Assembly (NCBI GenBank): GCA_035290065.1
Contig: DATDVD010000032.1
Location: forward strand, 8,737 to 72,736
Direction: 5' to 3'
DNA: 64,000 nt
Origin: Coxiellaceae bacterium
GTDB taxonomy: Bacteria; Pseudomonadota; Gammaproteobacteria; Coxiellales; Coxiellaceae
Shown: piece by piece, positions 1,535 through 49,251 of the stretch
Numbering within the stretch: the first letter of the stretch is position 1
Layout: each line of letters opens with the position of its first letter
Position numbers and translations under genes: made by a program
Notes under the pieces: generated by a model
What the model was told of the DNA's origin: nothing
Database searches by the model: none
What the model saw: the letters and a program-made list of their open reading frames with translations, nothing else

Positions 1535-3337
1535 TTGAAATATTTACTAGGATCTGCGTTATTATGGATTTGCACTTTCGCATTTGCGAGCCCTCCAGAC
1601 CCTTTACCGATGGATGAGGCGTATCAACTCAGTGCCTCCCTGCGAGACAATCAAACCGTAATCGTGCAATGGAAAATTGCACCGGGTTATTATCTTTATA
1701 AAGATCATATTGCCTTTCAATCTCCTGATCAGCAGGCGCAATTAGGGCAGCCTTTAATGCCCCCTGCGAAAGACTTTTATAATCCGACGGTCGGACATTA
1801 TAAAACTTATCAGGGAAATTTAAACATTCCTCTTCCGGTGATTAGTGCTAAATCCTCAAATTGGGTTTTAAAAGTTCATTATCAAGGATGTTCTCAATTC
1901 GGTTATTGTTATCCTCCTACCGATAAGATTTTAAAAATTAATACCACGGCCGATACGAACACGATTTTCAAACCGTTAGCGATTGATGTGCCTGCCATGC
2001 AGTATTCGTTAGGACACTGCCCAGAAGGCGCGCTCGATCGGATCACGTGTTTGCTGGCTCACGCCAATCCTTTATACATTTTATTGGGATTTTTAGGGTT
2101 TGGGTTATTAGTGTCTTTTACACCCTGCGTATTGCCCATGGTGCCTATTTTATCGGCTATCATTATTGGGCAGAAAAAATTATCTACCTTAAAATCCTTC
2201 GCCTTATCAGCGAGTTATGTACTAGGTATTGCTATTACGTACGCAGTCGTCGGGGTGGTATTTGGCGAATTAGGAAATAACTTACAAACGGCCTTACAAA
2301 ATACGTGGGTATTGGTATTATTTAGTTTGTTATTTGTAGTATTGGCCTTATCGTTGTTTGGTTTTTATGAACTACGGTTGCCTACTCGCTGGCAAAATCA
2401 TTTGCATCGACTGACAGAGCCTTCTCAAAAAAGTTCGTTGATCAGCATTTTTGTGATGGGTGTATTATCCACACTGGTCTTATCCCCTTGTGTCACCCCT
2501 CCGTTAGTAGCAGCCTTAAGTTTTATCAGCACGACAGGCAACGCGGTGTTAGGTGCTGCCGCTTTATTTACAATGGGTTTAGGAATGGGAGTTCCTTTAC
2601 TGATTATTGGCACGCTGGGTGGAAAATTTTTACCTCACACAGGCGAATGGATGGAAGGCATTAAAAGATTAATCGGTATTTTATTGTTGGCCGTTGCTAT
2701 TTCTATGTTGAGTCGAGTCATTACCGGTCCAGTCATTGTAGGTTTGTGGGCCCTACTCGCTTTTATTAGTGCTTATTATCTCGACGTTTTCGAAGTGTCT
2801 CAAAAAACTATTGCTAGTTTTATCCGTCGATTATTAGGATTGGTATTATTTGTGTATGCCATTCTAGCGGGAATCAGTGCATTAATGGGTAATTCCGATC
2901 CTCTCAAACCCTGGGGATGGCATGTAAAAAATCTATCACCAGACTATCCTGTCGTTCAGGTCAATACCGTTTTAGATGTCAAACGGGCTTTACATCAAGC
3001 CGTCGTTCACCATAAAGCTGTCATGCTCGATTTTTATGCAGATTGGTGCATAGCGTGTAAAGAACTGGATCGTTTTACTCTTTCCAACCCCCGCGTACAA
3101 GCTTTATTACGTCAAATGATGGTATTGAAAGCCGATGTATCTCAAAACTCAATGGAAGATAAAAATATTATGAAACACTATCACGTGATTGCACCACCCA
3201 CTTTGATTTTCTTTGATGAAAAAGGCCATGAAATTAAAAAGGCGCGAATCGTGGGTGTTATATCAGCGAAACAATTTGAACGCCACTTAAAACAAAATGG
3301 ATTGGTGTCTTCACCAATAAAGGCTCCACCGCCCTAA
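1535..3337 (+). CDS. dsbD: thiol:disulfide interchange protein DsbD
   Basis: TTG start preceded by an AAGGGG Shine-Dalgarno. The N-terminus looks like a signal peptide. The central multi-TM core has the two Cys-containing helices (FTPCVLPM, LSPCVTPP). The C-terminal thioredoxin fold has a WCIAC active site. Confidence 0.88.
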   Translation: MKYLLGSALLWICTFAFASPPDPLPMDEAYQLSASLRDNQTVIVQWKIAPGYYLYKDHIAFQSPDQQAQLGQPLMPPAKDFYNPTVGHYKTYQGNLNIPLPVISAKSSNWVLKVHYQGCSQFGYCYPPTDKILKINTTADTNTIFKPLAIDVPAMQYSLGHCPEGALDRITCLLAHANPLYILLGFLGFGLLVSFTPCVLPMVPILSAIIIGQKKLSTLKSFALSASYVLGIAITYAVVGVVFGELGNNLQTALQNTWVLVLFSLLFVVLALSLFGFYELRLPTRWQNHLHRLTEPSQKSSLISIFVMGVLSTLVLSPCVTPPLVAALSFISTTGNAVLGAAALFTMGLGMGVPLLIIGTLGGKFLPHTGEWMEGIKRLIGILLLAVAISMLSRVITGPVIVGLWALLAFISAYYLDVFEVSQKTIASFIRRLLGLVLFVYAILAGISALMGNSDPLKPWGWHVKNLSPDYPVVQVNTVLDVKRALHQAVVHHKAVMLDFYADWCIACKELDRFTLSNPRVQALLRQMMVLKADVSQNSMEDKNIMKHYHVIAPPTLIFFDEKGHEIKKARIVGVISAKQFERHLKQNGLVSSPIKAPPP

Positions 3338-4698
3338 CGTTCACCAAAGGATTCTGATACGGTTCCTTGTACCGGTTTTAACAGGTATTTTAAGAGGGAA
3401 CGACGATCGGTAATAATATCTGCTTGAACCGACATACCCGGTTTTAATAGATTTTTCTTCGGATCTTTTCCAATATAATTTTTGTTCAACTCAATCGTGG
3501 CCTTGTAATACAGTAAACCGGAAGCGGGGTCTGTATACGTGGAAGGCGAAATAGATACAACAGAGCCTTCTACCCCTCCATAGCGTACATAATCAAAGGT
3601 ATAAATTTTTACATTGACTTTATCGCCCACGGTAATATGACCAATATCCCGTGGCCGCACACGACTTTCCACTACTAATTCCTGATCACTGGGAATAATT
3701 TCCATGATTTTTTGACGCGGAGCTATTATGCTGTCTTTTTTTCCTTCAATGCCTTGTACAATGCCTGAAATGGGCGCCCGGATAACAGTGCGCTGCGCTT
3801 GATCCGATAATTGTTTAAGATTTTGTTGAATGCGAATCAAAGAGGCTTTCGTTTCACTTAATTGTTGGTGAGCAGTTGCTTCTCTGTCGGCTCGAAAACT
3901 CTCCAATTTTGCTTGACTCTCTTTTAAAGCGCCTTCAGCAGCCACCTTTTCACTTTGAAGGTCAGTAATCACTTCCGACGCTTCATTCATTCTTCTCTTG
4001 GCCGTAAGGTAATCTTTTTCAGAAACATAATGCTTCTTCACTAAGTTTTCGTACATAGCCAATTCTCGACTAAAAAGATCGGATTGTGTTTTTGCCGTGC
4101 TAATTTTTGTATCGAGATTGCGAATGCGTTCCTTATCTTGAGCTATTTGATTTTCTTGCTCAGTAATTTTAGAGGCTTGACTGGCATTTTCACGCGCTAA
4201 CTGGGATTGTTCATTTTGAATTAAATCATATATCTGATTTTTATCATTAATCATATCGAATTGCGAGGAAGAAATGGACCCTACCCAATCCACTTCATCG
4301 GGTGCTTTATTATCCAAAAAAGCCTGCAAACGAACTATATCCAACGTCAAATTAACTGCCTGTGCTTCATCAATCGCTAATTGTGACTGAGCATGAATGG
4401 GATCCATTTTGATTAAAGGATCACCTTCTTTTACTTTTTGATCATTGTGGACATATACTTCATCAATAATACCCCCCTCTAAATGCTGAATAGGATAACT
4501 TTTATCGTAGGGTTGTATTTGCCCTACTGTTATCGCCACTTCATTAATAGAAGCGAAGGCAGACCATAGCAGCAACAGAAAAAACACAATTGAAATAACG
4601 AGAACCCCTTTTCGAATGAGACGAAAACGATCCCCCTCTTCTAATACAGTAGCATTTGAAATAAACTGTAGCTGTTTGTAAATATGTCGTCTTTTCAT
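3334..4698 (-). CDS. HlyD-family type I secretion membrane-fusion (periplasmic adaptor) protein
   Basis: Single N-terminal TM, a long coiled-coil middle (Q/E/K/L-rich) and C-terminal beta-barrel blocks typical of HlyD. The start overlaps the upstream ABC gene stop (ATGA at 4695-4698). Confidence 0.87.
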   Translation of the reverse strand: MKRRHIYKQLQFISNATVLEEGDRFRLIRKGVLVISIVFFLLLLWSAFASINEVAITVGQIQPYDKSYPIQHLEGGIIDEVYVHNDQKVKEGDPLIKMDPIHAQSQLAIDEAQAVNLTLDIVRLQAFLDNKAPDEVDWVGSISSSQFDMINDKNQIYDLIQNEQSQLARENASQASKITEQENQIAQDKERIRNLDTKISTAKTQSDLFSRELAMYENLVKKHYVSEKDYLTAKRRMNEASEVITDLQSEKVAAEGALKESQAKLESFRADREATAHQQLSETKASLIRIQQNLKQLSDQAQRTVIRAPISGIVQGIEGKKDSIIAPRQKIMEIIPSDQELVVESRVRPRDIGHITVGDKVNVKIYTFDYVRYGGVEGSVVSISPSTYTDPASGLLYYKATIELNKNYIGKDPKKNLLKPGMSVQADIITDRRSLLKYLLKPVQGTVSESFGER

Positions 4699-6794
4699 TC
4701 TTTCATCTGCCTTATTTTTTCGATTGCCTCACTAGGTTTTCCTAATAATTGCAATCGCCCTTTATCCAGCAATAAGACTCGATCTGCCATTTGAATATGA
4801 GAAAATCGATGGGTACACATAATTATAGTACTTTTGCCTCGCCATTGATGAATAGTGTTGAGAAAGTGTTGTTCAAATTTTTCATCAAAATTACTGACAG
4901 GCTCATCCAAAAGAATGAATCGCGAATTTTTAAGATAAGCGCGTGCCAAACAGAGCCCGAATTGGAAACTTTCTGAGAAACGAAAGCGTGCATAATCTGA
5001 CAAAGGGGTATCAAAACCTGCTTCCAACACCTTAATCATGTCGTAAACACCCGTAATTTTAGTAGCCTCCATTAACTGCTCAGGGGTGGCCAATGGATTC
5101 GCCAATCGCAAATTTTGCTCCACCGTTCCATAAAATAATTGAGAGATTTGAGAACTATAGCTAATGGTTTTTCGATAATTAATTAAGTCAAACTGTCGCA
5201 AATCTACTCCGTCTACATAAATAGTCCCCACTTGAGGCATATACAACCCTAGCAATAACTTTAATAGAGTACTTTTCCCAGAGCCATTCGGTCCAGTCAA
5301 AGCAATTAATTCGCCGGGATAAATATGAAGATTAATATTAACCAGAGCCGGATGGATAGCATTAGGATAGCGAAAACCCACCTGATTCATCACAATATCG
5401 CCCCGAATTTTAGGCAACGTTCTAAAGGTTAAAGGGCTGCCCTCATCCTCTGACTCGATAGTCATTAAGGCATTAAACTGAAGCATACTGCGCCTTATTT
5501 GAAGGAAACGGGGTAAATAAATATAAAGGGATTTTATAGGGGAAAGGGAGCGCCAAATTAAAATCATCACCGCAATCATCGTACCCACATTTAAACGTTG
5601 GTCCATGATCATAACAGCACTTATACCTAATAATACTGTCCCAGCCCCTGCAACAATAAAATCGGATACACTATTATCTAATACTCGTTTCACGCTGTTG
5701 ATAAAATTTTCATACGAGTTATCTCCTGAAATATTCCGTTCTTTTTCAATCCATTTGCCTTCTAATTGAAGCATTTTAATCGTGTGTTGTTTTTGAAGCG
5801 CTTCAATAAGAAATTCCTGTCGTTCATAATTTTTAGAGTTTGCTTCTTCGTCTTTGGAAGAATAAAACTGTTTTATAAATACCATCACTGCAAACAATAC
5901 TGTCGATATAATGGGTATCCACACTAATATTCCACCTAACAAGCCAATGACAAAAAGCAAAACCGCTATAAAAGGAATCTCTAAGAAAGTAATCATCATA
6001 GGGCCACTGATAAAAGAACGTAATGCAGAAAAGTCACGTATTTTAGCAATTTGAGAGCCAATCGAGGCGCCTTCCGTATAAGCAGCGGGTAAAAATAATA
6101 TTTTCTTAAAAACGGCATCACCCATCGATTGGCTAATGTCTGTCCCTATAGAAGAGACTAAACGGCTTCTAATTTTCTGAATCATCGTAGCACCCACGAT
6201 GGCCAACGCCACGCCGATTAAAAACGCTATACTGCTTGAGGGCGCATGGGTTCCCACTACCTGATTATAAATCGCCATAATGAAAAGGGGCGTGCCTAAA
6301 TTTAATAGGCTTAATACAAAACCAAACTCCATAACCCGCGCTAACGTTTTTTTATGTTGTTGCCATACATGGCTAAACCATGGTTGGCGGGATGCTCCTA
6401 CTCTTAATCGCGGACGTTTTTTAAATACATACGCAACACCTTGAAACTGAACCTGTTTAACACGCTTTAAAATTTTTTTCGTGGCGTCATACAGTAATGC
6501 CGAATTTTTTCTCGCATCCAAAATAAGTAGAACATTTCCATCATCGGCCACAAAAAGACACGGCAATAAACGTTTATCCAATTCGTCTAATCTCAAGGCA
6601 AAGGATTCAGAATCAAATCCTAGAATCTGCATAACTTGGCAAAACAACAGCGCATTATGCACCTCTGAAAAATGAGGGAGCGCTTCTATTACATCCCGCC
6701 GAAGTCCTCGCCAATGCAACGCTTGTAATAAAGGAGCAAAGCATCGTTCATACGGTGTGCGATCCAGATTCAGAGGAGAGTCTATTGCTTTCAT
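4695..6794 (-). CDS. type I secretion ABC transporter permease/ATPase with an N-terminal C39-like domain
   Basis: 699 aa. About 130 aa precede the TMD and resemble a C39-like domain. Walker A is GPNGSGKST, Walker B FILLDEP and H-loop CTHR, but the signature motif reads FSESF instead of LSGGQ. There is a 4-nt overlap with both neighbouring genes. Confidence 0.85.
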   Translation of the reverse strand: MKAIDSPLNLDRTPYERCFAPLLQALHWRGLRRDVIEALPHFSEVHNALLFCQVMQILGFDSESFALRLDELDKRLLPCLFVADDGNVLLILDARKNSALLYDATKKILKRVKQVQFQGVAYVFKKRPRLRVGASRQPWFSHVWQQHKKTLARVMEFGFVLSLLNLGTPLFIMAIYNQVVGTHAPSSSIAFLIGVALAIVGATMIQKIRSRLVSSIGTDISQSMGDAVFKKILFLPAAYTEGASIGSQIAKIRDFSALRSFISGPMMITFLEIPFIAVLLFVIGLLGGILVWIPIISTVLFAVMVFIKQFYSSKDEEANSKNYERQEFLIEALQKQHTIKMLQLEGKWIEKERNISGDNSYENFINSVKRVLDNSVSDFIVAGAGTVLLGISAVMIMDQRLNVGTMIAVMILIWRSLSPIKSLYIYLPRFLQIRRSMLQFNALMTIESEDEGSPLTFRTLPKIRGDIVMNQVGFRYPNAIHPALVNINLHIYPGELIALTGPNGSGKSTLLKLLLGLYMPQVGTIYVDGVDLRQFDLINYRKTISYSSQISQLFYGTVEQNLRLANPLATPEQLMEATKITGVYDMIKVLEAGFDTPLSDYARFRFSESFQFGLCLARAYLKNSRFILLDEPVSNFDEKFEQHFLNTIHQWRGKSTIIMCTHRFSHIQMADRVLLLDKGRLQLLGKPSEAIEKIRQMKE

Positions 6795-8596
6795 GCTAAC
6801 TCACGCAAATGTTGATCTAATTCATAAACTCGATCAGCCAACCGGATAGCCGGTTGCCATTCGGTAATAAGAATCATGGTACAATGCTGTTTAATACGAT
6901 GAAGCAACGTCAGTAAATCGCGATTACCGAAAAAATCCAGCGCCGCATTGCCTTCATCAAAAATTAGAATTTTAGGTTGTTTTAAAAGGGCTCGAATAAT
7001 CATCATGCGTTGTTTAACACCTTGCCCAATGACGGTTACTGGATTTTTGCCTACTTCGGTATCAAACCCTCTCGGCATTTCTTTTACCAAATTAATCAAA
7101 CCCAGCACACGCGAAAGCCTTAATGCAACAGGTCTATTAGCCTCGTTAAAGAGCGTAATATTATCCATAATGGTTCCTGCCAACAGATCAGAATTCTGAG
7201 GAATATAGGCGATCTGTTCTCGCACAGAATTTAAGTTATACTCGAAAATATTTTTCCCATCCAACATTATTTTTCCGCTTTCAGGCGGAATATAGCCCAT
7301 AAACAGTTGCGCTAACGTAGACTTGCCTTTTTGGCCATTGGCGCGAATCGCAATAGTCTCACCTTTCTTTACTTGTAAATTAAGATTTTTAAACAAATAA
7401 CGTGTTTGATTGATATTTTTTAACGAAATATTTTCGAGCCTAAGAGTGCCTTGAATAGCACCCATAGATTGTTTTCCCGGTGGACATTCTTGTGGTAATT
7501 GCAACAAATCGATCATTTTTCGTCGCACAAGTTTCACGGTCTGCATCCGTGTCCAAGCACTTAAAATAGAATTAAGCGGTTGAATGCAACGGCCTGTTAA
7601 TAATGTACAGGCTGCTAAACTACCAATGGTTAAAGAACCATTTAGTACTAACAAACCACCAAACAAAGCCACCAAAATTAAAGCGGCTTGTGAACCTATC
7701 TGGCGTCCTAAACCCAGTTCTGTATCTTCTTCATTGCTATAACTATCCAATAGAGAACGCTTAACCTCCAATCGTTCATAGCGTCGTAACATTTGGGATT
7801 CGAGGCCAAAGGATTTAACGGTATGCACATTAGAAAGCGTATTAATAAGAAAGTTAATTTCATGATCGGCTTGTTCTTGTTGAGCAATTTTCAACATTTC
7901 AATATTTTTATTAATTAATCCACTATAAATAAGCAATCCTAATAAAATTATTACCGGTAGAAAAACTAACCATCCTCCAATATACGCAATGAGCCCTAGA
8001 AATAAAAAAATAAACGGCGCATCCATCAACGTACTGAGTGCCTGACTGGCATAAAAACTTCTCACATAATTTAAGGAATTTAAATCATCCAAATGAGCTC
8101 CAATGCCTTTTTTCTCAAAAGCGGTGATTTGTGTATGCATTAAATGAGAAAATACTTTGCAGGTTAATCGATGCTCATACTTAGCATCTACCCACGCGGC
8201 CACATAGGAACGGCCTATTCTTAAAATACTTTCTAAAATGAGCGCTGAAAAAACGCCCAATAACAAGAGTGACAACGTATTTAAGGAATGATTAGGAATC
8301 ACACGATCATACACTTGCAATAAAGCAATCGGGAATGCAATGGATAAAAGATTAATCGCTAAAGAAGCGGCTAAAATAACTACAATCGTTTCACGACTGC
8401 TTAATTTAAGAACTTGGTTGAGTCCTTCCAAAAAAAATGGGGGTTCTTTGAAAGAGATGGAACGAATACCGATGATTTTTAATCGGGCTTTAAGCGCTTT
8501 GAAATTATTTAAATCCCAGTGGGGAATAAAGCGTTTCCAAGCAGAGAGAGTCCGATGTAAGGCGCGTTTATGATCCTTCATAGTGCCCAACTTCAT
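6791..8596 (-). CDS. second type I secretion ABC half-transporter with a degenerate nucleotide-binding domain
   Basis: 601 aa with a six-helix exporter-type TMD followed by an NBD. Walker A is ANGQKGKST, the signature position reads IGQGV, Walker B is ILIFDEG, and the H-loop position reads ILITEW with no His. An alternative ATG lies at 8581. Confidence 0.78.
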   Translation of the reverse strand: MKLGTMKDHKRALHRTLSAWKRFIPHWDLNNFKALKARLKIIGIRSISFKEPPFFLEGLNQVLKLSSRETIVVILAASLAINLLSIAFPIALLQVYDRVIPNHSLNTLSLLLLGVFSALILESILRIGRSYVAAWVDAKYEHRLTCKVFSHLMHTQITAFEKKGIGAHLDDLNSLNYVRSFYASQALSTLMDAPFIFLFLGLIAYIGGWLVFLPVIILLGLLIYSGLINKNIEMLKIAQQEQADHEINFLINTLSNVHTVKSFGLESQMLRRYERLEVKRSLLDSYSNEEDTELGLGRQIGSQAALILVALFGGLLVLNGSLTIGSLAACTLLTGRCIQPLNSILSAWTRMQTVKLVRRKMIDLLQLPQECPPGKQSMGAIQGTLRLENISLKNINQTRYLFKNLNLQVKKGETIAIRANGQKGKSTLAQLFMGYIPPESGKIMLDGKNIFEYNLNSVREQIAYIPQNSDLLAGTIMDNITLFNEANRPVALRLSRVLGLINLVKEMPRGFDTEVGKNPVTVIGQGVKQRMMIIRALLKQPKILIFDEGNAALDFFGNRDLLTLLHRIKQHCTMILITEWQPAIRLADRVYELDQHLRELA

Positions 8597-8612
8597 CCTT
8601 TATATTAGTTGT

Positions 8613-8641
8613 ACTATAGTCAATGGGATTTGCATTCACAA
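8613..8641 (-). promoter_or_regulatory. candidate sigma70 promoter for the T1SS operon (TTGTGA-17 nt-TATAGT)
   Basis: On the minus strand the -35 TTGTGA is at 8641-8636 and the -10 TATAGT at 8618-8613, with a 17-nt spacer. It sits just upstream of the 8596 start in the divergent intergenic region. Confidence 0.4.
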
Positions 8642-8703
8642 GCTTGCACAAAACACCGCTTTTTTCGATCATTAGCTATACTCCTTTAACAAGGAGACAA
8701 ACG

Positions 8704-10482
8704 ATGTCGAAGGATGATTTTTTAGAACATCCCGGTAACCAACCCGATGATAAAAGGCCTGAAGAGAAAACTCCTTCCTCTTTTGACAGAGCCGTACAAA
8801 ATGTGCCTAGCCCAGGCGAAACAGATCCTTCCCGAGACACGGTTCATCGAGGCCTCCATGTTCAACAAGCCACCCCTGCGGAACAAATGGTTCCCACAAA
8901 ACCTGGCAGGCCTCGCTCGATAGCCACGGAAACTTCCACTCCTGAAACCAATAAACTCCCCGCTTCTTCCTCGCCGTCATCGGACGCACCGAGTCCCCAA
9001 ACAACCCCTACGGGAATAGAAGCCACGGAAACTTCCACTCCTTCTGCCACACAAACATTCACCGGACGCCCAGCAGACACCTCTATAGGTGAACGCCCTA
9101 GCCCTCCTGGCACATTCTCCCGTGGCGAAGAAGGCTCCGAAACTCAACCCTTATTCTCGTCTATGCCCACCGACACTGCTTCCCCTGCTCCGTCAGAGGG
9201 AGAGGCTACTCCCACCAGCCCTATCACCTCCACGGCTACTTCTCTTGAGGAAACTACTCCACAAAATGGAAGTACCAGCAATACAGCTGCTTCTCTTGAG
9301 GAAACTACTTCCCCAAATGAAAGCACCGGCAATGAGGGCAATGAAAATGAAGGTGCGAATAACGACGGTGGGAACAGTGACGACGAAGGACAAACATTTA
9401 TTGGAACAGAGTCAACCGATACCCTTACCGGGACACCGTGGGCCGATATTATTGAAGGCCGGGGCGGTAATGACACCCTCACAGGCGAAGCAGGAGACGA
9501 CCTTATCCAAGGAGAAGCGGGCCTGGATACGCTCAAAGGCGGGGAAGGCAATGATACCTTGCAAGGCGGCAGCGACAATGACCTTTTATATGGCGAAGAA
9601 GGCAACGACATTCTCGAAGGCGGATCAGGAAATGATACCCTTCAAGGTGGCGAAGGCAGCGATACATTGTCTGGAGGAGAAGGTAAGGACACTCTCCAAG
9701 GAGAGGGAGGAAAAGATATCCTTCACGGCGGTGACGATAACGACACAGTGGAAGGAGGAGAAGGAGACGATACCCTCTATGGGGAGGGCGGCAAGGATAC
9801 CCTTAAAGGAGGCACAGGCCATGACACACTCGAAGGAGGAGAAAATAATGACACCTTGTATGGAGACGAAGGAGACGACACGCTTCAAGGAGATGCTGGT
9901 AAAGATACTCTTCGCGGCGGCTCTGGTCGTGATATTTTAACCGGGGGCGAAGACGATGATACTCTTTACGGAAACGAAGGAGATGACACACTTCAAGGAG
10001 ACGCGGCCAAAGACACTCTTCGCGGCGGCGCCGGCAATGACCGCTTAGAAGGCGGTGCTGATGCTGATACTTTATACGGCGAAGAAGGCAACGACATTTT
10101 AGAAGGAGGTGAAGGAAAAGATACCCTCCGAGGGGGGGAAGGGAATGACACCCTCTACGGCAATCAAGGAAACGATACCCTTTATGGAGAGGAAGGCTCC
10201 GATTCTTTTGTCTTTGGCGTAGGTGCTGGCAATGACACAGTGGCAGGCGGTAAAGGTGGCGGCTGGACCGATACGATTCGCCTGGAAGGAATAAGCAATG
10301 GTCCCTCCGTTAAGCTCGGCGGCGAAGGTACCTGGATATTAGAATTAGATAAGAAAAGCCCCGATTACACGATCGACCAGGAAAATCACGTCCTGGAATT
10401 TAAAGGCGAAGGAAGCGGCACCATTACCCTTTCCGATGGGAGCGAACTGGACTTTAAAGACATCGAACGGATTGAGTGGTAG
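8704..10482 (+). CDS. RTX-repeat calcium-binding protein, probable type I secretion substrate
   Basis: I prefer the ATG at 8704 (MSKDDF...) because AAGGAG lies 7 nt upstream; the listed ORF start at 8623 has no SD. The N-terminal ~250 aa are P/S/T/E-rich and low in complexity. They are followed by 28 consecutive GGxGxDxLx nonapeptides and a ~90-aa acidic C-terminal tail ending ...DFKDIERIEW. Confidence 0.88.
   Translation: MSKDDFLEHPGNQPDDKRPEEKTPSSFDRAVQNVPSPGETDPSRDTVHRGLHVQQATPAEQMVPTKPGRPRSIATETSTPETNKLPASSSPSSDAPSPQTTPTGIEATETSTPSATQTFTGRPADTSIGERPSPPGTFSRGEEGSETQPLFSSMPTDTASPAPSEGEATPTSPITSTATSLEETTPQNGSTSNTAASLEETTSPNESTGNEGNENEGANNDGGNSDDEGQTFIGTESTDTLTGTPWADIIEGRGGNDTLTGEAGDDLIQGEAGLDTLKGGEGNDTLQGGSDNDLLYGEEGNDILEGGSGNDTLQGGEGSDTLSGGEGKDTLQGEGGKDILHGGDDNDTVEGGEGDDTLYGEGGKDTLKGGTGHDTLEGGENNDTLYGDEGDDTLQGDAGKDTLRGGSGRDILTGGEDDDTLYGNEGDDTLQGDAAKDTLRGGAGNDRLEGGADADTLYGEEGNDILEGGEGKDTLRGGEGNDTLYGNQGNDTLYGEEGSDSFVFGVGAGNDTVAGGKGGGWTDTIRLEGISNGPSVKLGGEGTWILELDKKSPDYTIDQENHVLEFKGEGSGTITLSDGSELDFKDIERIEW
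9457..10212 (+). repeat. 28 uninterrupted 27-bp (nonapeptide GGxGxDxLx) RTX repeats, including a 108-bp higher-order duplication (9835-9942 / 9943-10050)
   Basis: I counted the repeats directly from GRGGNDTLT through GEEGSDSFV. The 36-aa units GGENNDTLYGDEGDDTLQGDAGKDTLRGGSGRDILT and GGEDDDTLYGNEGDDTLQGDAAKDTLRGGAGNDRLE are adjacent. Confidence 0.95.
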
Positions 10483-46741: not shown

Positions 46742-47459
46742 TGCAATGTTCTTTCATTATTAATTCAGCTAATTGAAAATTGATCTGATTATCAATATCA
46801 ATACTCTCTTCTTTTTTCATAAAATAAGCCATACAAGGCCGCTGATAAAAATTAAATGTTTTTAGAAATCCTTTTACTGTAACCGCATAAATAGCACCAT
46901 TTTGTTGATATACCTTGGGCAATTGCTGCATTTGAGCTTCCATAGCCACATCATCTACAAACGGTTCAATAGCATCTTGATTGATCATTACTGCTTTAGC
47001 AGGATGAGTCTCCACCTCGCAGACACTCATTCCACTAGCCCATTCACCTTGCAAAAAAGTGTGCAAACATGCCGTAAGATGATACTCTGTCCTTAAAGGG
47101 GAAGTAGGCTGTAACAAAACGATTGTGTTAAACTGTTGATTAAGCGCTGCATAATGTTGCAGAACGTGCAGAACTACATCGTTGTTTCGAATCTTATCTT
47201 TTGATAAATCTGAGGGGCGATCCACTACCTCAGCACCTTCCCTAAGTGCCACCTGTTTAATGAAGAGATCGTCTGTAGAAACCACCACTTTATCAATCAA
47301 TCGACAATTCAGCGCTGCCATTATTGTATAAGAAACCATGGGTTTTCCTGCTAGTAATAGTTTATTTTTTTGAGGGAGACGCCTAGAAAAACCTTTAGCA
47401 GGAATAATCGCTAAAATAGGCTGTCGATTTTTTTGCAGACAGGATTCACGTGAAGGCAT
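46710..47459 (-). CDS. acylneuraminate cytidylyltransferase-family (CMP-ulosonic acid synthetase) enzyme, copy 1
   Basis: ILAIIPAKGFSRRLPQKNKLLLAGKPMVSYTI, LLQPTSPLR and QQNGAIY blocks of the CTP_transf_3 family. Confidence 0.8.
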   Translation of the reverse strand: MPSRESCLQKNRQPILAIIPAKGFSRRLPQKNKLLLAGKPMVSYTIMAALNCRLIDKVVVSTDDLFIKQVALREGAEVVDRPSDLSKDKIRNNDVVLHVLQHYAALNQQFNTIVLLQPTSPLRTEYHLTACLHTFLQGEWASGMSVCEVETHPAKAVMINQDAIEPFVDDVAMEAQMQQLPKVYQQNGAIYAVTVKGFLKTFNFYQRPCMAYFMKKEESIDIDNQINFQLAELIMKEHCNDQSEKRSTL

Positions 47460-49251
47460 ATTTTTTTATTAACCCTTGAAATAAACCTTCTGTATTACAC
47501 AGTGTTTCAAATTTTCCTTCCGTAATAATCTTGCCCTGTTCAAGCACATATATCCAATCACAGTTCTTTAAAGTATGTAAACGATGTGATACAAAAACAA
47601 TAGTTTTTTTAGGCCTGAGCGACATGACTCGATTTAAGATATTTTCTTCTAATTCTAAATCTAAATTTGCCGTTGCCTCATCCAAAATTAAAACATCCGG
47701 ATTTAAATACAAAGCGCGAGCAATGCCAATTCGTTGTCGCTGCCCACCGGATAGCGTTAAACCATTCTCACCAATAGGCTGATATAAATAATCCTCTCCT
47801 CGTAATGCACAATCCTCCAATTCTACTAAAAGCATTAACTCTCGCACCCTAGAAATATCAATATCGTTAGGTTCTATCCCATATGCAACATTACTGATGA
47901 TGGAATCTGGAAGAATATAGGTGCTTTGTGGAACATAGCCTACATTATTAAGCCATTTCTTTTTTATCGCGATAGAACTTAAATTCATGCCATCTATTAC
48001 AATTTGCCCATCAGAAGGATCTATCAACCCAGTCAATAAATTGACCAGTGTCGATTTTCCAGCCGCTGATTTTCCTGCAAGACCAACGAACTGGCCTGCA
48101 TGGATGACAATATTAATATTTGAAAAAATCTTCGGGCTATCTTTTTTGTACTGATAACATACATTAGAAAAAACAATCTTCTCTTGAAAAAGAAGCCTAT
48201 CTTGAGTAGCAAAAGAAGAACAAATATCAGATTCCTTTTCATATTTTGATAAATCTGTGGCAATAATGTTTAAATATTCAAGGCCACCACCTAATAGCTG
48301 CATTCCTGAAAAAATTCTATTAATCTGAGGAAGCATCCTAAACATAATCATGAGTAAAACTGTTAGCACGGAAAAAGCATGAGCGTGGTCATTTCTATGT
48401 AAATAAAATAATATTAAAACCAATATACCCACCATAACTCCTGCTTCCAAAACGAGAGGAGGGAAAAAAGAAAGAAATTGCCCTATATGTTTATGAGAAT
48501 AATTCTTTTCTTCCAAAAATGAAAATATATTAATAAAAAAATCTTCTTTCCCAAATATTTTTATTTCTCGTATCGAACTAAAGGATTTAGATAAGGTTTT
48601 TTGCTTTTCCTGGTGAACTTCCTGAGCTTCCTTTTGTAGTTTTTTATTTTTATCTTTAAAAAGAAAATAAAAAAATGCTAAAGGGATTAATAAAGCGGAC
48701 ATTAACAATGCCCCTTGTGGAAAAACCATACAAAGCAACACAACAAGCCCTGTCATAATTGAACTTGCAACAATAATATTAAAAATGGGCATCACATAGT
48801 GATCAAAAACTAATCCTGCTGTTGAAATGTTTCGAATACCATCTGCTGAACCTTGTTCTATATGAAACTGATAATTTGCGTAAAGATACATTTTCATCAG
48901 TCGATTACTTAATTTCGTTTTCCAATCAATCAATAACTTCATTTGAAAATAACGAAATGAAATCATATAGCCTATTCTGAATAAAATTAAAGCTACAATA
49001 GATGAAAGAAAAACAGCACTCAGTGTATGCTCGTTCGTAATATGCATTACCCTGATGACCCATGCTAATGATCTAAAATTATGGATGGCTTCTGGCTTTA
49101 TCAAGAGATAAATAAAAGGAAAAATCAGGGCAATACCAACAGCTTCTATAATGCCTGAAAATATACTCATGCATACCAGGCCAATGACTTTGACTTTTTT
49201 GCTTTTGAACTCGTTTACTAAAAAACGGCTTGCTGCTTTATTGAGAATCAT
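47446..49251 (-). CDS. fused TMD-NBD ABC exporter (MsbA/PglK-like architecture)
   Basis: Six N-terminal TM helices. All NBD motifs are canonical: GKSAAGKST, LSGGQRQRIGIARAL, LILDEATANLD and VSHRL. Confidence 0.87.
   Translation of the reverse strand: MILNKAASRFLVNEFKSKKVKVIGLVCMSIFSGIIEAVGIALIFPFIYLLIKPEAIHNFRSLAWVIRVMHITNEHTLSAVFLSSIVALILFRIGYMISFRYFQMKLLIDWKTKLSNRLMKMYLYANYQFHIEQGSADGIRNISTAGLVFDHYVMPIFNIIVASSIMTGLVVLLCMVFPQGALLMSALLIPLAFFYFLFKDKNKKLQKEAQEVHQEKQKTLSKSFSSIREIKIFGKEDFFINIFSFLEEKNYSHKHIGQFLSFFPPLVLEAGVMVGILVLILFYLHRNDHAHAFSVLTVLLMIMFRMLPQINRIFSGMQLLGGGLEYLNIIATDLSKYEKESDICSSFATQDRLLFQEKIVFSNVCYQYKKDSPKIFSNINIVIHAGQFVGLAGKSAAGKSTLVNLLTGLIDPSDGQIVIDGMNLSSIAIKKKWLNNVGYVPQSTYILPDSIISNVAYGIEPNDIDISRVRELMLLVELEDCALRGEDYLYQPIGENGLTLSGGQRQRIGIARALYLNPDVLILDEATANLDLELEENILNRVMSLRPKKTIVFVSHRLHTLKNCDWIYVLEQGKIITEGKFETLCNTEGLFQGLIKKYAFT

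Follow-up and report, generated by a model that had tools for sequence, protein, structure and literature searches.

The subject of this study is a type I secretion operon in a 64,000-nucleotide stretch of DNA from a Coxiellaceae bacterium (contig DATDVD010000032.1; the whole stretch is referred to here as the window), and in particular the two unequal ATP-binding cassette (ABC) half-transporters that this operon encodes. Three genes follow one another on the minus strand in the list of open reading frames (ORFs). A601 (6791..8596) codes for a 601-residue half-transporter with a transmembrane domain and a nucleotide-binding domain (NBD) and without an N-terminal C39-like domain, B699 (4695..6794) for a 699-residue half-transporter composed of a C39-like domain, a transmembrane domain and an NBD, and the third gene (3334..4698) for a 454-residue type I secretion periplasmic adaptor of the HlyD family. 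An earlier note on this DNA had these genes chained in this order by 4-nt ATGA overlaps, and both the ORFs and the junctions read directly agree: A601 overlaps B699 at 6794-6791 (gcATGAaag) and B699 overlaps the adaptor gene at 4698-4695 (gaATGAaaa). Divergent from A601, on the plus strand (8623..10482), lies a gene for an RTX protein, the probable substrate, which is recognized by the Pfam model HemolysinCabind and stands in the same place in the closest relative of the locus, a metagenome contig (L090) with the same RTX-A-B-D layout. The window sequence occurs in groundwater and soil metagenomes only, with uncultured Coxiellaceae-like Gammaproteobacteria as its nearest relatives.

Both half-transporters match Pfam ABC_membrane followed by ABC_tran, and A601 aligns in HMMER with residues 150-677 of HlyB. 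Their top NCBIfam models are three type I secretion ABC subfamilies and their top matches in the PDB are HlyB and PrtD, as expected for type I secretion ABC proteins. The best curated family for both is TIGR03375 (LssB), with 367.4 bits for A601 and 425.5 bits for B699 against a cut-off of 693.1. The HlyB model TIGR01846 gives 277 and 292 bits against a cut-off of 725.55, TIGR03796 and TIGR03797 give 197-208 bits against 853 and 709, and TIGR03794 gives 41 against 156; such scores, under the curated cut-offs, rule out membership in the LssB, HlyB, PrtD or NHLP families. The adaptor, whose gene overlaps B699 by 4 nt, is a TIGR01843 protein (361 bits, above the cut-off of 208.65) and without exception comes third in the cassette in the related loci described below.

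The nucleotide-binding motifs of the two proteins (all encoded on the minus strand) are of particular interest, and their register was fixed by HMMER alignment to solved structures (HlyB and P-glycoprotein). B699 has a complete set of canonical catalytic residues: an A-loop tyrosine, the Walker A motif GPNGSGKST (5268..5294), a Q-loop glutamine, the Walker B motif ILLDEP with its catalytic glutamate (4899..4916) and an H-loop (cTHR) with His662 (4809..4811). The same alignment sets its segment rFSESFqfglclARAylkn on qMSGGQkqriaiARAlvrn of P-glycoprotein, so that the C-loop FSESF (4965..4979) falls exactly opposite MSGGQ. A601 is the degenerate subunit. Its airANGQKGKST aligns on ivGRSGSGKST of HlyB, which gives a Walker A motif ANGQKGKST (7316..7342; GxNGSGK[ST]T in the family) that has lost the first and fourth glycines and kept the Lys-Ser-Thr. 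At the A-loop position, Asn394 (7415..7417) replaces the adenine-stacking aromatic residue, a tyrosine in HlyB. The C-loop region vIGQGVkqr lies opposite LSGGQrqr of HlyB; HMMER inserts one residue here, and the ungapped register taken from the KQR anchor is IGQGV (7016..7030). The Walker B motif LIFDEG (6950..6967; FD[E/D/N]AN in the family), opposite LIFDEA of HlyB, keeps the catalytic glutamate, and at the H-loop ilITEW stands opposite iiIAHR, with Glu579 (6860..6862) in place of the histidine, a substitution shared by L090. The A601 ATP site, with its A-loop asparagine, ANGQKGKST and H-loop glutamate, is the most eroded of its family, and neither A601 nor B699 contains the string xSGGx anywhere.

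These alignments bear out the motifs that the earlier note had read in both proteins, including FSESF for LSGGQ in B699 and the glutamate for histidine in A601; a profile register against HlyB could have moved a canonical LSGGQ or H-loop onto the degenerate positions of A601 and did not. The note had also singled out the glycine that follows the Walker B motif of A601. The string LIFDEG is indeed present; the glycine itself is without consequence, since the catalytic glutamate is retained. The register further upholds the note's deduction that, in a heterodimer, both composite ATP sites would be non-consensus and the one built on A601 would lack the H-loop histidine.

An eroded ATP site invites the suspicion that A601 is a functionless duplicate in decay and that B699 alone drives secretion, and the earlier note had named frameshifts or relaxed selection as signs of it. 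Neither was seen. The 601-codon reading frame is intact, and A601 is 66% identical in amino acid sequence to its counterpart in L090, compared with 61% for B699 and 64% for the adaptor. The nonsynonymous divergence (dN) over the same pair is 0.270 for A, 0.283 for B and 0.257 for HlyD, with saturated synonymous divergence (dS of at least 1.9), which indicates that A601 evolves no faster than its partners. The unusual motifs of A601 are moreover kept in L090 (AEGQKGKST, VIGQGV, FDEGN, SERS). In less diverged pairs of related loci (from Thalassospira and Magnetospirillum), the dN/dS ratio of A lies at 0.045-0.18, that of B at 0.05-0.15 and that of HlyD at 0.04-0.20; judged by these rates, strong purifying selection acts on each of the three genes. 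The transmembrane region of A and its signature Gly-x-K-Q-R are highly conserved across the family, and the A gene is retained even in subgroups with a wholly dead A site (GSGRST, FDTAN and a change of the H-loop His to Asp). Decay of A601 is thus ruled out by the selection and conservation data, and we regard it as extremely improbable in spite of the erosion of its ATP site.

The cassette is not peculiar to the window. A601 was searched against 5.8 billion proteins, and a profile of the A family was run against genomes sampled at one per species, from which the best 80 loci were retained. Relatives of A601 form more than 100 clusters of 556-600 residues, have no N-terminal domain and carry C-loops that are all different from LSGGQ (e.g. 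LPRGIKQR, LPGGVRQR, TPMGIAQR and SESLLQR). Relatives of B699 are about 700-730 residues long, with canonical Walker and H motifs and C-loops such as LAGSF, LPTSF and FSASF. Wherever the contig allows, all of the best 80 loci have an A-like, a B-like and an HlyD gene in this order on one strand; A overlaps B by 4 nt in 38 of 72 loci, and B overlaps the HlyD gene by 4 nt in 32 of 66. These loci come mainly from Alpha- and Gammaproteobacteria and also from Desulfobulbaceae; among the taxa are Thalassospira, Magnetospirillum, Phaeospirillum, Kordiimonas, Sneathiella, Amphritea, Sedimenticola and Thiodiazotropha, as well as Francisellaceae and Coxiellaceae metagenome-assembled genomes (MAGs), Desulfobulbaceae and Magnetococcales. 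The N-terminal domain of the B type alone accounts for 326 clusters at 50% identity among 1.84 billion representative proteins. A metagenome scan with A601 returned distant ABC proteins only. The earlier note had called type I systems with two ABC genes rare and had proposed a search of relatives for conservation of the pair. Rarity holds for the systems that have been described; it does not hold for genomes, given the pair's presence in each of the best 80 loci and the number of N-domain clusters.

Comparison across this family brings out a consistent division between the two subunits, which share only about 25% identity. The Walker B catalytic residue is glutamate in 70 of 70 B proteins, and is divided in the A proteins among Glu (58), Asp (17) and Asn (3). 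The H-loop residue is likewise histidine in all 70 B proteins and variable in A (44 His, 14 Pro, 6 Tyr, 4 Gln and 4 Leu). The A-loop residue is tyrosine in 70 of 72 B proteins and Tyr, Phe or His in 77 of 78 A proteins; A601 departs from its own family at this position. The C-loop signature follows the pattern [LMF][PS]x[SG][FL] in B and L[PS]xG[VI] in A, the latter with its glycine present in 78 of 78 proteins and followed by a near-invariant K/R-Q-R. LSGGQ was never present among the family signatures of either A or B. On this sequence comparison, the degenerate motifs are a family-wide trait under selection and not a feature of the one locus.

Variants of the cassette add to this picture. 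In a long-B subgroup from Rhodospirillales (L009, L015, L019, L028, L030, L032 and L035-L037), the B-like genes encode 894-1086 residues, with an extension of about 250-370 residues N-terminal of the C39-like domain; the spacing from A to B is wider and the H-loop residue of A is proline. A Pfam search of the N-terminal extension of about 350 residues in these long B variants gave no match. Two more distant subgroups retain the A-B-HlyD order. In one (L096, 8001-13287) the A site is dead in the manner noted above and the A gene is still kept, and the other (L097, 8001-13200) differs in its signatures, as discussed below; to judge by these sequences, the distribution of degenerate motifs has changed on more than one occasion inside the family. 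Finally, in several lineages A and B are fused in frame into a single chain, with a linker of about 40 residues between them. Two such fusions, in Rhodospirillaceae LM-1 and a related MAG (L042 and L047), are 1299 and 1305 residues long and 82% identical to each other. A third, in Azospirillum sp. B510 (WP_148219661.1, 1363 residues), adjoins an HlyD gene and a 16.5-kb gene for an Ig-like protein and is annotated merely as an 'ATP-binding cassette domain-containing protein'. At least seven more clusters at 50% identity, of about 1300 residues, have the B N-domain at residues 600-750.

Since A and B are never apart in the 80 loci, are mostly translationally coupled and are fused in several lineages, and since their asymmetry is complementary in the way seen in known heterodimeric exporters, they probably form one transporter. 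The earlier note had taken a heterodimer as its premise, and synteny, coupling, fusions and complementary motifs together suggest that this premise is likely to be correct. The alternative is that A601 and B699 assemble as separate homodimers, A2 and B2, which share the HlyD protein or serve different cargos. Such an arrangement would suit the habit of characterized type I secretion ABC proteins (HlyB and PrtD), which are typically homodimers, and the low identity between A and B. It would, however, leave the linkage, coupling and fusion of the two genes unexplained, and both assemblies would be peculiar: B2 would have both of its sites closed by [LMF][PS]xS[FL], and the sites of A2 would lack the histidine and, in the window, the A-loop aromatic residue and a normal P-loop as well. 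We therefore consider two homodimers unlikely.

In the A601-B699 heterodimer, ATP would be hydrolyzed at the site formed by the A-loop, Walker A, Q-loop, Walker B and H-loop of B699 and closed by the IGQGV signature of A601, and the motif register makes this B699-based site the one that most likely hydrolyzes ATP. The second site, in which FSESF of B699 would complete the eroded motifs of A601, is most likely non-hydrolytic by analogy with the degenerate sites of TM287/288, TmrAB, TAP and CFTR, and probably has a structural or regulatory role; in the lineage of the window, nucleotide binding may be absent from this site altogether. In exporters with one degenerate site, a division of labor between the two sites has been described, with degenerate sites acting as stable ATP-bound hinges (PMC7756269). 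That behavior can also be extended to a more radical proposal, namely that neither site turns over ATP usefully, that nucleotide only gates or assembles the pump and that export is driven mainly by, for example, the proton-motive force or the folding of RTX repeats driven by extracellular calcium. The absence of LSGGQ from both subunits throughout the family speaks for this proposal. The degenerate sites of CFTR and TAP2 have the signatures LSHGH and LAAGQ, and the better of the two signatures here, that of A, resembles these non-hydrolytic sites. Even so, the B proteins keep the glutamate, histidine and tyrosine described above without or nearly without exception over very large evolutionary distances, which is hard to explain without catalysis, and the signature glycine of A is equally constant. 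We judge a pump without useful ATP turnover to be improbable, and prefer one active site, on B699.

The C39-like domain of B699 (residues 10-126; 6417..6767, minus strand) was delimited from a profile search against the PDB, a model of the domain and its conservation. The earlier note had described the N-terminus as C39-like and without the catalytic histidine, and this description stands. A profile of the first approximately 130 residues of the family gave a weak match to the C39-like domain (CLD) of HlyB (3zua), with His83 of HlyB opposite Ala or Val in the family and opposite Val88 in B699. Pfam Peptidase_C39 gave a weak match in 3 of 24 family members. An AlphaFold model of B699 (predicted local distance difference test score, pLDDT, of 81) has as its best structural match full-length HlyB (8dck_A; 689 aligned columns, CLD included), and for an isolated model of the domain (pLDDT 82) the top 17 Foldseek hits, with TM-scores of 0.5-0.65, are without exception C39 or C39-like domains from ABC exporters. 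Cys18 (6741-6743), at the start of helix 1, is kept in 64 of 72 family members, so that of the Cys-His pair of C39 peptidases the cysteine is present and the histidine is not. The CLD of HlyB has the reverse arrangement, in which the cysteine is lost and the histidine kept. A Pro40-His41 pair (6672-6677) is near-invariant (70 of 72 members) and is separate from the C39 histidine position. Because this domain is missing from A601 and its relatives, the transporter would have one docking domain and not two, and B699 would supply both this domain and the full set of catalytic residues.

In the RTX protein, an N-terminal region rich in Pro, Ser and Thr is found together with 14 HemolysinCabind matches (Pfam E = 1e-107) and a conserved C-terminal module; its counterpart at the same position in L090 is 49% identical. 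The module, a putative secretion or recognition domain of about 85 residues (10225..10479, plus strand), reads GG.G.GWTD.I.L…W.L…SGTITLSDGSEL.F..IERIEW-COOH. Over its final 110 or so residues, the RTX protein can be aligned from end to end with the C-terminal parts of proteins encoded next to 13 other cassettes and in L090 (the loci are L001, L038, L043, L048, L059, L062, L068-L070, L072, L075, L077, L079 and L090). These proteins, of 520 to more than 3200 residues, share the pattern GG.G.GW[TS]D.I.L … W.L … D.SG.IT..DGS.L.F.G[IV]E.IEW-COOH, for which an NCBIfam search of the RTX protein found no model beyond the RTX repeats. Other cassettes adjoin giant RTX, cadherin, Big_9 or Ig-like proteins. 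A nearby protein with RTX repeats and a C-terminus shared among cassettes is what a type I system would be expected to have, and this protein is probably secreted by the pump; the module may be recognized by the C39-like domain of B.

The cargo could in principle be something else, such as a peptide or bacteriocin, as for two-ABC exporters of the C39 and NHLP types. The NHLP/Nif11 cassette has two ABC genes, one with a functional C39 domain, and an HlyD-type protein, and includes the Legionella LB2SS (PMC6959600). The cassette of the window is like it in these components and in having the C39 fold in one subunit only, and the B domain retains the cysteine. The cargo of NHLP systems is, however, a leader-peptide bacteriocin, and here the C39 histidine is absent family-wide, the scores for TIGR03796, TIGR03797 and TIGR03794 are far under their cut-offs, the neighbors of cassettes in many unrelated genomes are RTX or giant repeat proteins that have a C-terminal module in common, and no small double-glycine peptide gene was seen beside the window cassette in the ORF list. 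A cargo of this other kind is very unlikely, and we return to the RTX protein as the probable substrate.

Among characterized systems, LssB/LssD-TolC and LapB/LapC/LapE come closest by curated family and have in common with the window an HlyD-type adaptor, RTX or adhesin-like cargo and a TolC that is usually unlinked, and B699 aligns along the entire LssB model (TIGR03375), the N-terminal C39-like domain included. LssB and LapB are nevertheless single genes whose products are thought to be homodimers, whereas the window has two diverged paralogs, one C39-like domain and no LSGGQ. HlyB/HlyD/TolC (PDB 7SGR and 8DCK; CLD 3ZUA) is the top match among solved structures and likewise has RTX cargo with a C-terminal signal, but in the HlyB homodimer both ATP sites are canonical and there are two CLDs, and the identity of HlyB to the asymmetric pair described here is about 22-25%. 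Heterodimeric exporters of the TM287/288, TmrAB, BmrCD and TAP1/2 kind (PMC7756269) offer a parallel for the pair itself, with adjacent half-transporters, one NBD and the partner's signature non-canonical, and natural fusions; the model of B699 also matches TM287/288 and TmrAB structurally. They differ in that their active site keeps LSGGQ, while the presumed active site here would be closed by IGQGV, and in that they have no HlyD adaptor and do not secrete proteins, while the window cassette has an HlyD protein and an RTX neighbor.

The precedent offered by the earlier note, RtxB/RtxE of the MARTX system, proved to be a poor one. MARTX does combine two different ABC genes with one adaptor, and reviews report of RtxB/RtxD/RtxE that neither ABC protein can be dispensed with and that the two have been proposed to form a heterodimer (PMC3034196, PMC4316617). 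In the V. vulnificus plasmid pC4602-2, however, both RtxB and RtxE have fully canonical motifs (GxSGSGKST, LSGGQ, LLDEATS and AHR), and they are only 24-26% identical to A601 and B699, which makes MARTX a different system. The MARTX order is moreover B-D-E, divergent from rtxHCA and with both ABC proteins of about 700 residues, and not A-B-D; motifs, identity and gene order together rule out membership. Homologs of rtxH and rtxC were looked for at the window locus and none was found. The BapP system of P. tunicata was also considered as a system of the same kind and rejected; it is a pump of the MacB/LolD type.

Taken together, these results make it likely that A601 and B699 form an obligate heterodimer that, with the HlyD adaptor (as a hexamer) and an unlinked TolC-like channel, secretes the adjacent RTX protein. 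The cassette is apparently a member of a widespread, conserved and as yet uncharacterized family of pumps in which both signatures are non-canonical: in open-access papers, preprints and one large 2021 review, we found no description of a short and a long LssB-like ABC protein working as a pair. More tentatively, and with somewhat less than even expectation, we suggest that this family is a widespread, undescribed class of type I pump with a single ATP site closed by a signature other than LSGGQ, with a partner site that in this groundwater lineage may have given up nucleotide binding and with a lone C39-like domain, cysteine kept and histidine lost, that may recognize the '…IEW' module of the cargo. 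The A-B pair has likely escaped recognition as a unit, despite standing beside many giant genes of the RTX adhesin or toxin type, because its members are annotated only as 'ATP-binding cassette domain-containing protein'.

Type I secretion is known almost wholly from homodimers (HlyB, PrtD and LapB), in which the paired ATP sites and docking domains cannot be told apart. In a natural heterodimer, mutation of a single subunit could separate the number of ATP sites needed, the role and stoichiometry of the C39-like domain and the recognition of the cargo C-terminus, and the single-chain A-B fusions provide a natural form of the same pump. If the proposal is true, a second active ATP site, a second docking domain and a canonical signature are all dispensable for the export of large proteins by type I systems. 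The conservation of L[PS]xG[VI] under strong selection across phyla would challenge the view of LSGGQ as a requirement for a working ABC site. The cassette would also depart from the established picture of degenerate-site transporters, as the presumed active site, too, is without LSGGQ.

Several observations weigh against this interpretation. The binding of A to B is deduced from gene arrangement and sequence, and the RTX protein is probably the cargo on the strength of its adjacency. The resemblance of IGQGV/LPxGV to the CFTR and TAP2 signatures means that the hydrolytic competence of the presumed active site is not assured. In the distant subgroup represented by L097, the signature glycine is in B (QPPGF) and absent from A (ASESL), so that pairing of the A signature with the active site may not be a general rule. 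No TolC gene was found in the 64-kb window, either by Pfam among the large ORFs or by phmmer with E. coli TolC over segments of at least 150 residues (E of at least 3), in agreement with the earlier note. Genes for outer-membrane factors are often unlinked to type I secretion operons. Among 80 related loci, 6 have a TolC-like gene within 10 kb, which in L063 directly follows the HlyD gene. Finally, it was in open-access papers and preprints that no type I system with a degenerate ATP site was found described, and an earlier description elsewhere is possible.

Comparison with relatives also bears on where the two divergent genes begin. The true start of A601 is possibly M6 (8581), and that of the RTX gene, compared with its closest relative, is probably M28 (8704); as relatives place the start at about 8704, codons 1-27 of the RTX ORF are probably untranslated. 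These starts would leave a probable divergent promoter region of about 120 bp (8582..8703) between the two genes, compared with 26 bp between the longest ORFs. A promoter and terminator scan was uninformative (14 promoter-like sites, 17 expected). At the other end of the operon, a dsbD-like gene (1535..3337, plus strand) is convergent with the HlyD gene, and the two genes overlap by 4 nt at their stop codons; a terminator-like hairpin on the minus strand (3318-3301) lies within the dsbD-like gene.

Farther into the window, between 24000 and 60000, is a mostly minus-strand cluster of low GC content (30-40%) for nonulosonic-acid and glycan synthesis. It includes two NeuB homologs, a DegT aminotransferase, a GT1 glycosyltransferase, a CBS-nucleotidyltransferase, a methyltransferase, a GFO/IDH oxidoreductase, several ORFs of 437-510 residues without a Pfam match and its own ABC exporter, also of 601 residues (47446..49251). 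Two Vibrio plasmid loci are recorded as well. On the Vibrio coralliilyticus plasmid pSNUTY2 (CP020456.1), the region 2367-11061 of L094 holds an HlyD gene, a response-regulator-like gene and three consecutive ABC-type genes (474, 528 and 712 residues) next to a very large ORF, and belongs to neither the MARTX nor the A-B-HlyD family. On pC4602-2, the V. vulnificus plasmid that carries the MARTX genes, the region 6734-11017 of L095 holds SAVED-domain, Mov34/MPN, ThiF-family and nucleotidyltransferase genes, a four-gene set that resembles a CBASS-type anti-phage operon.

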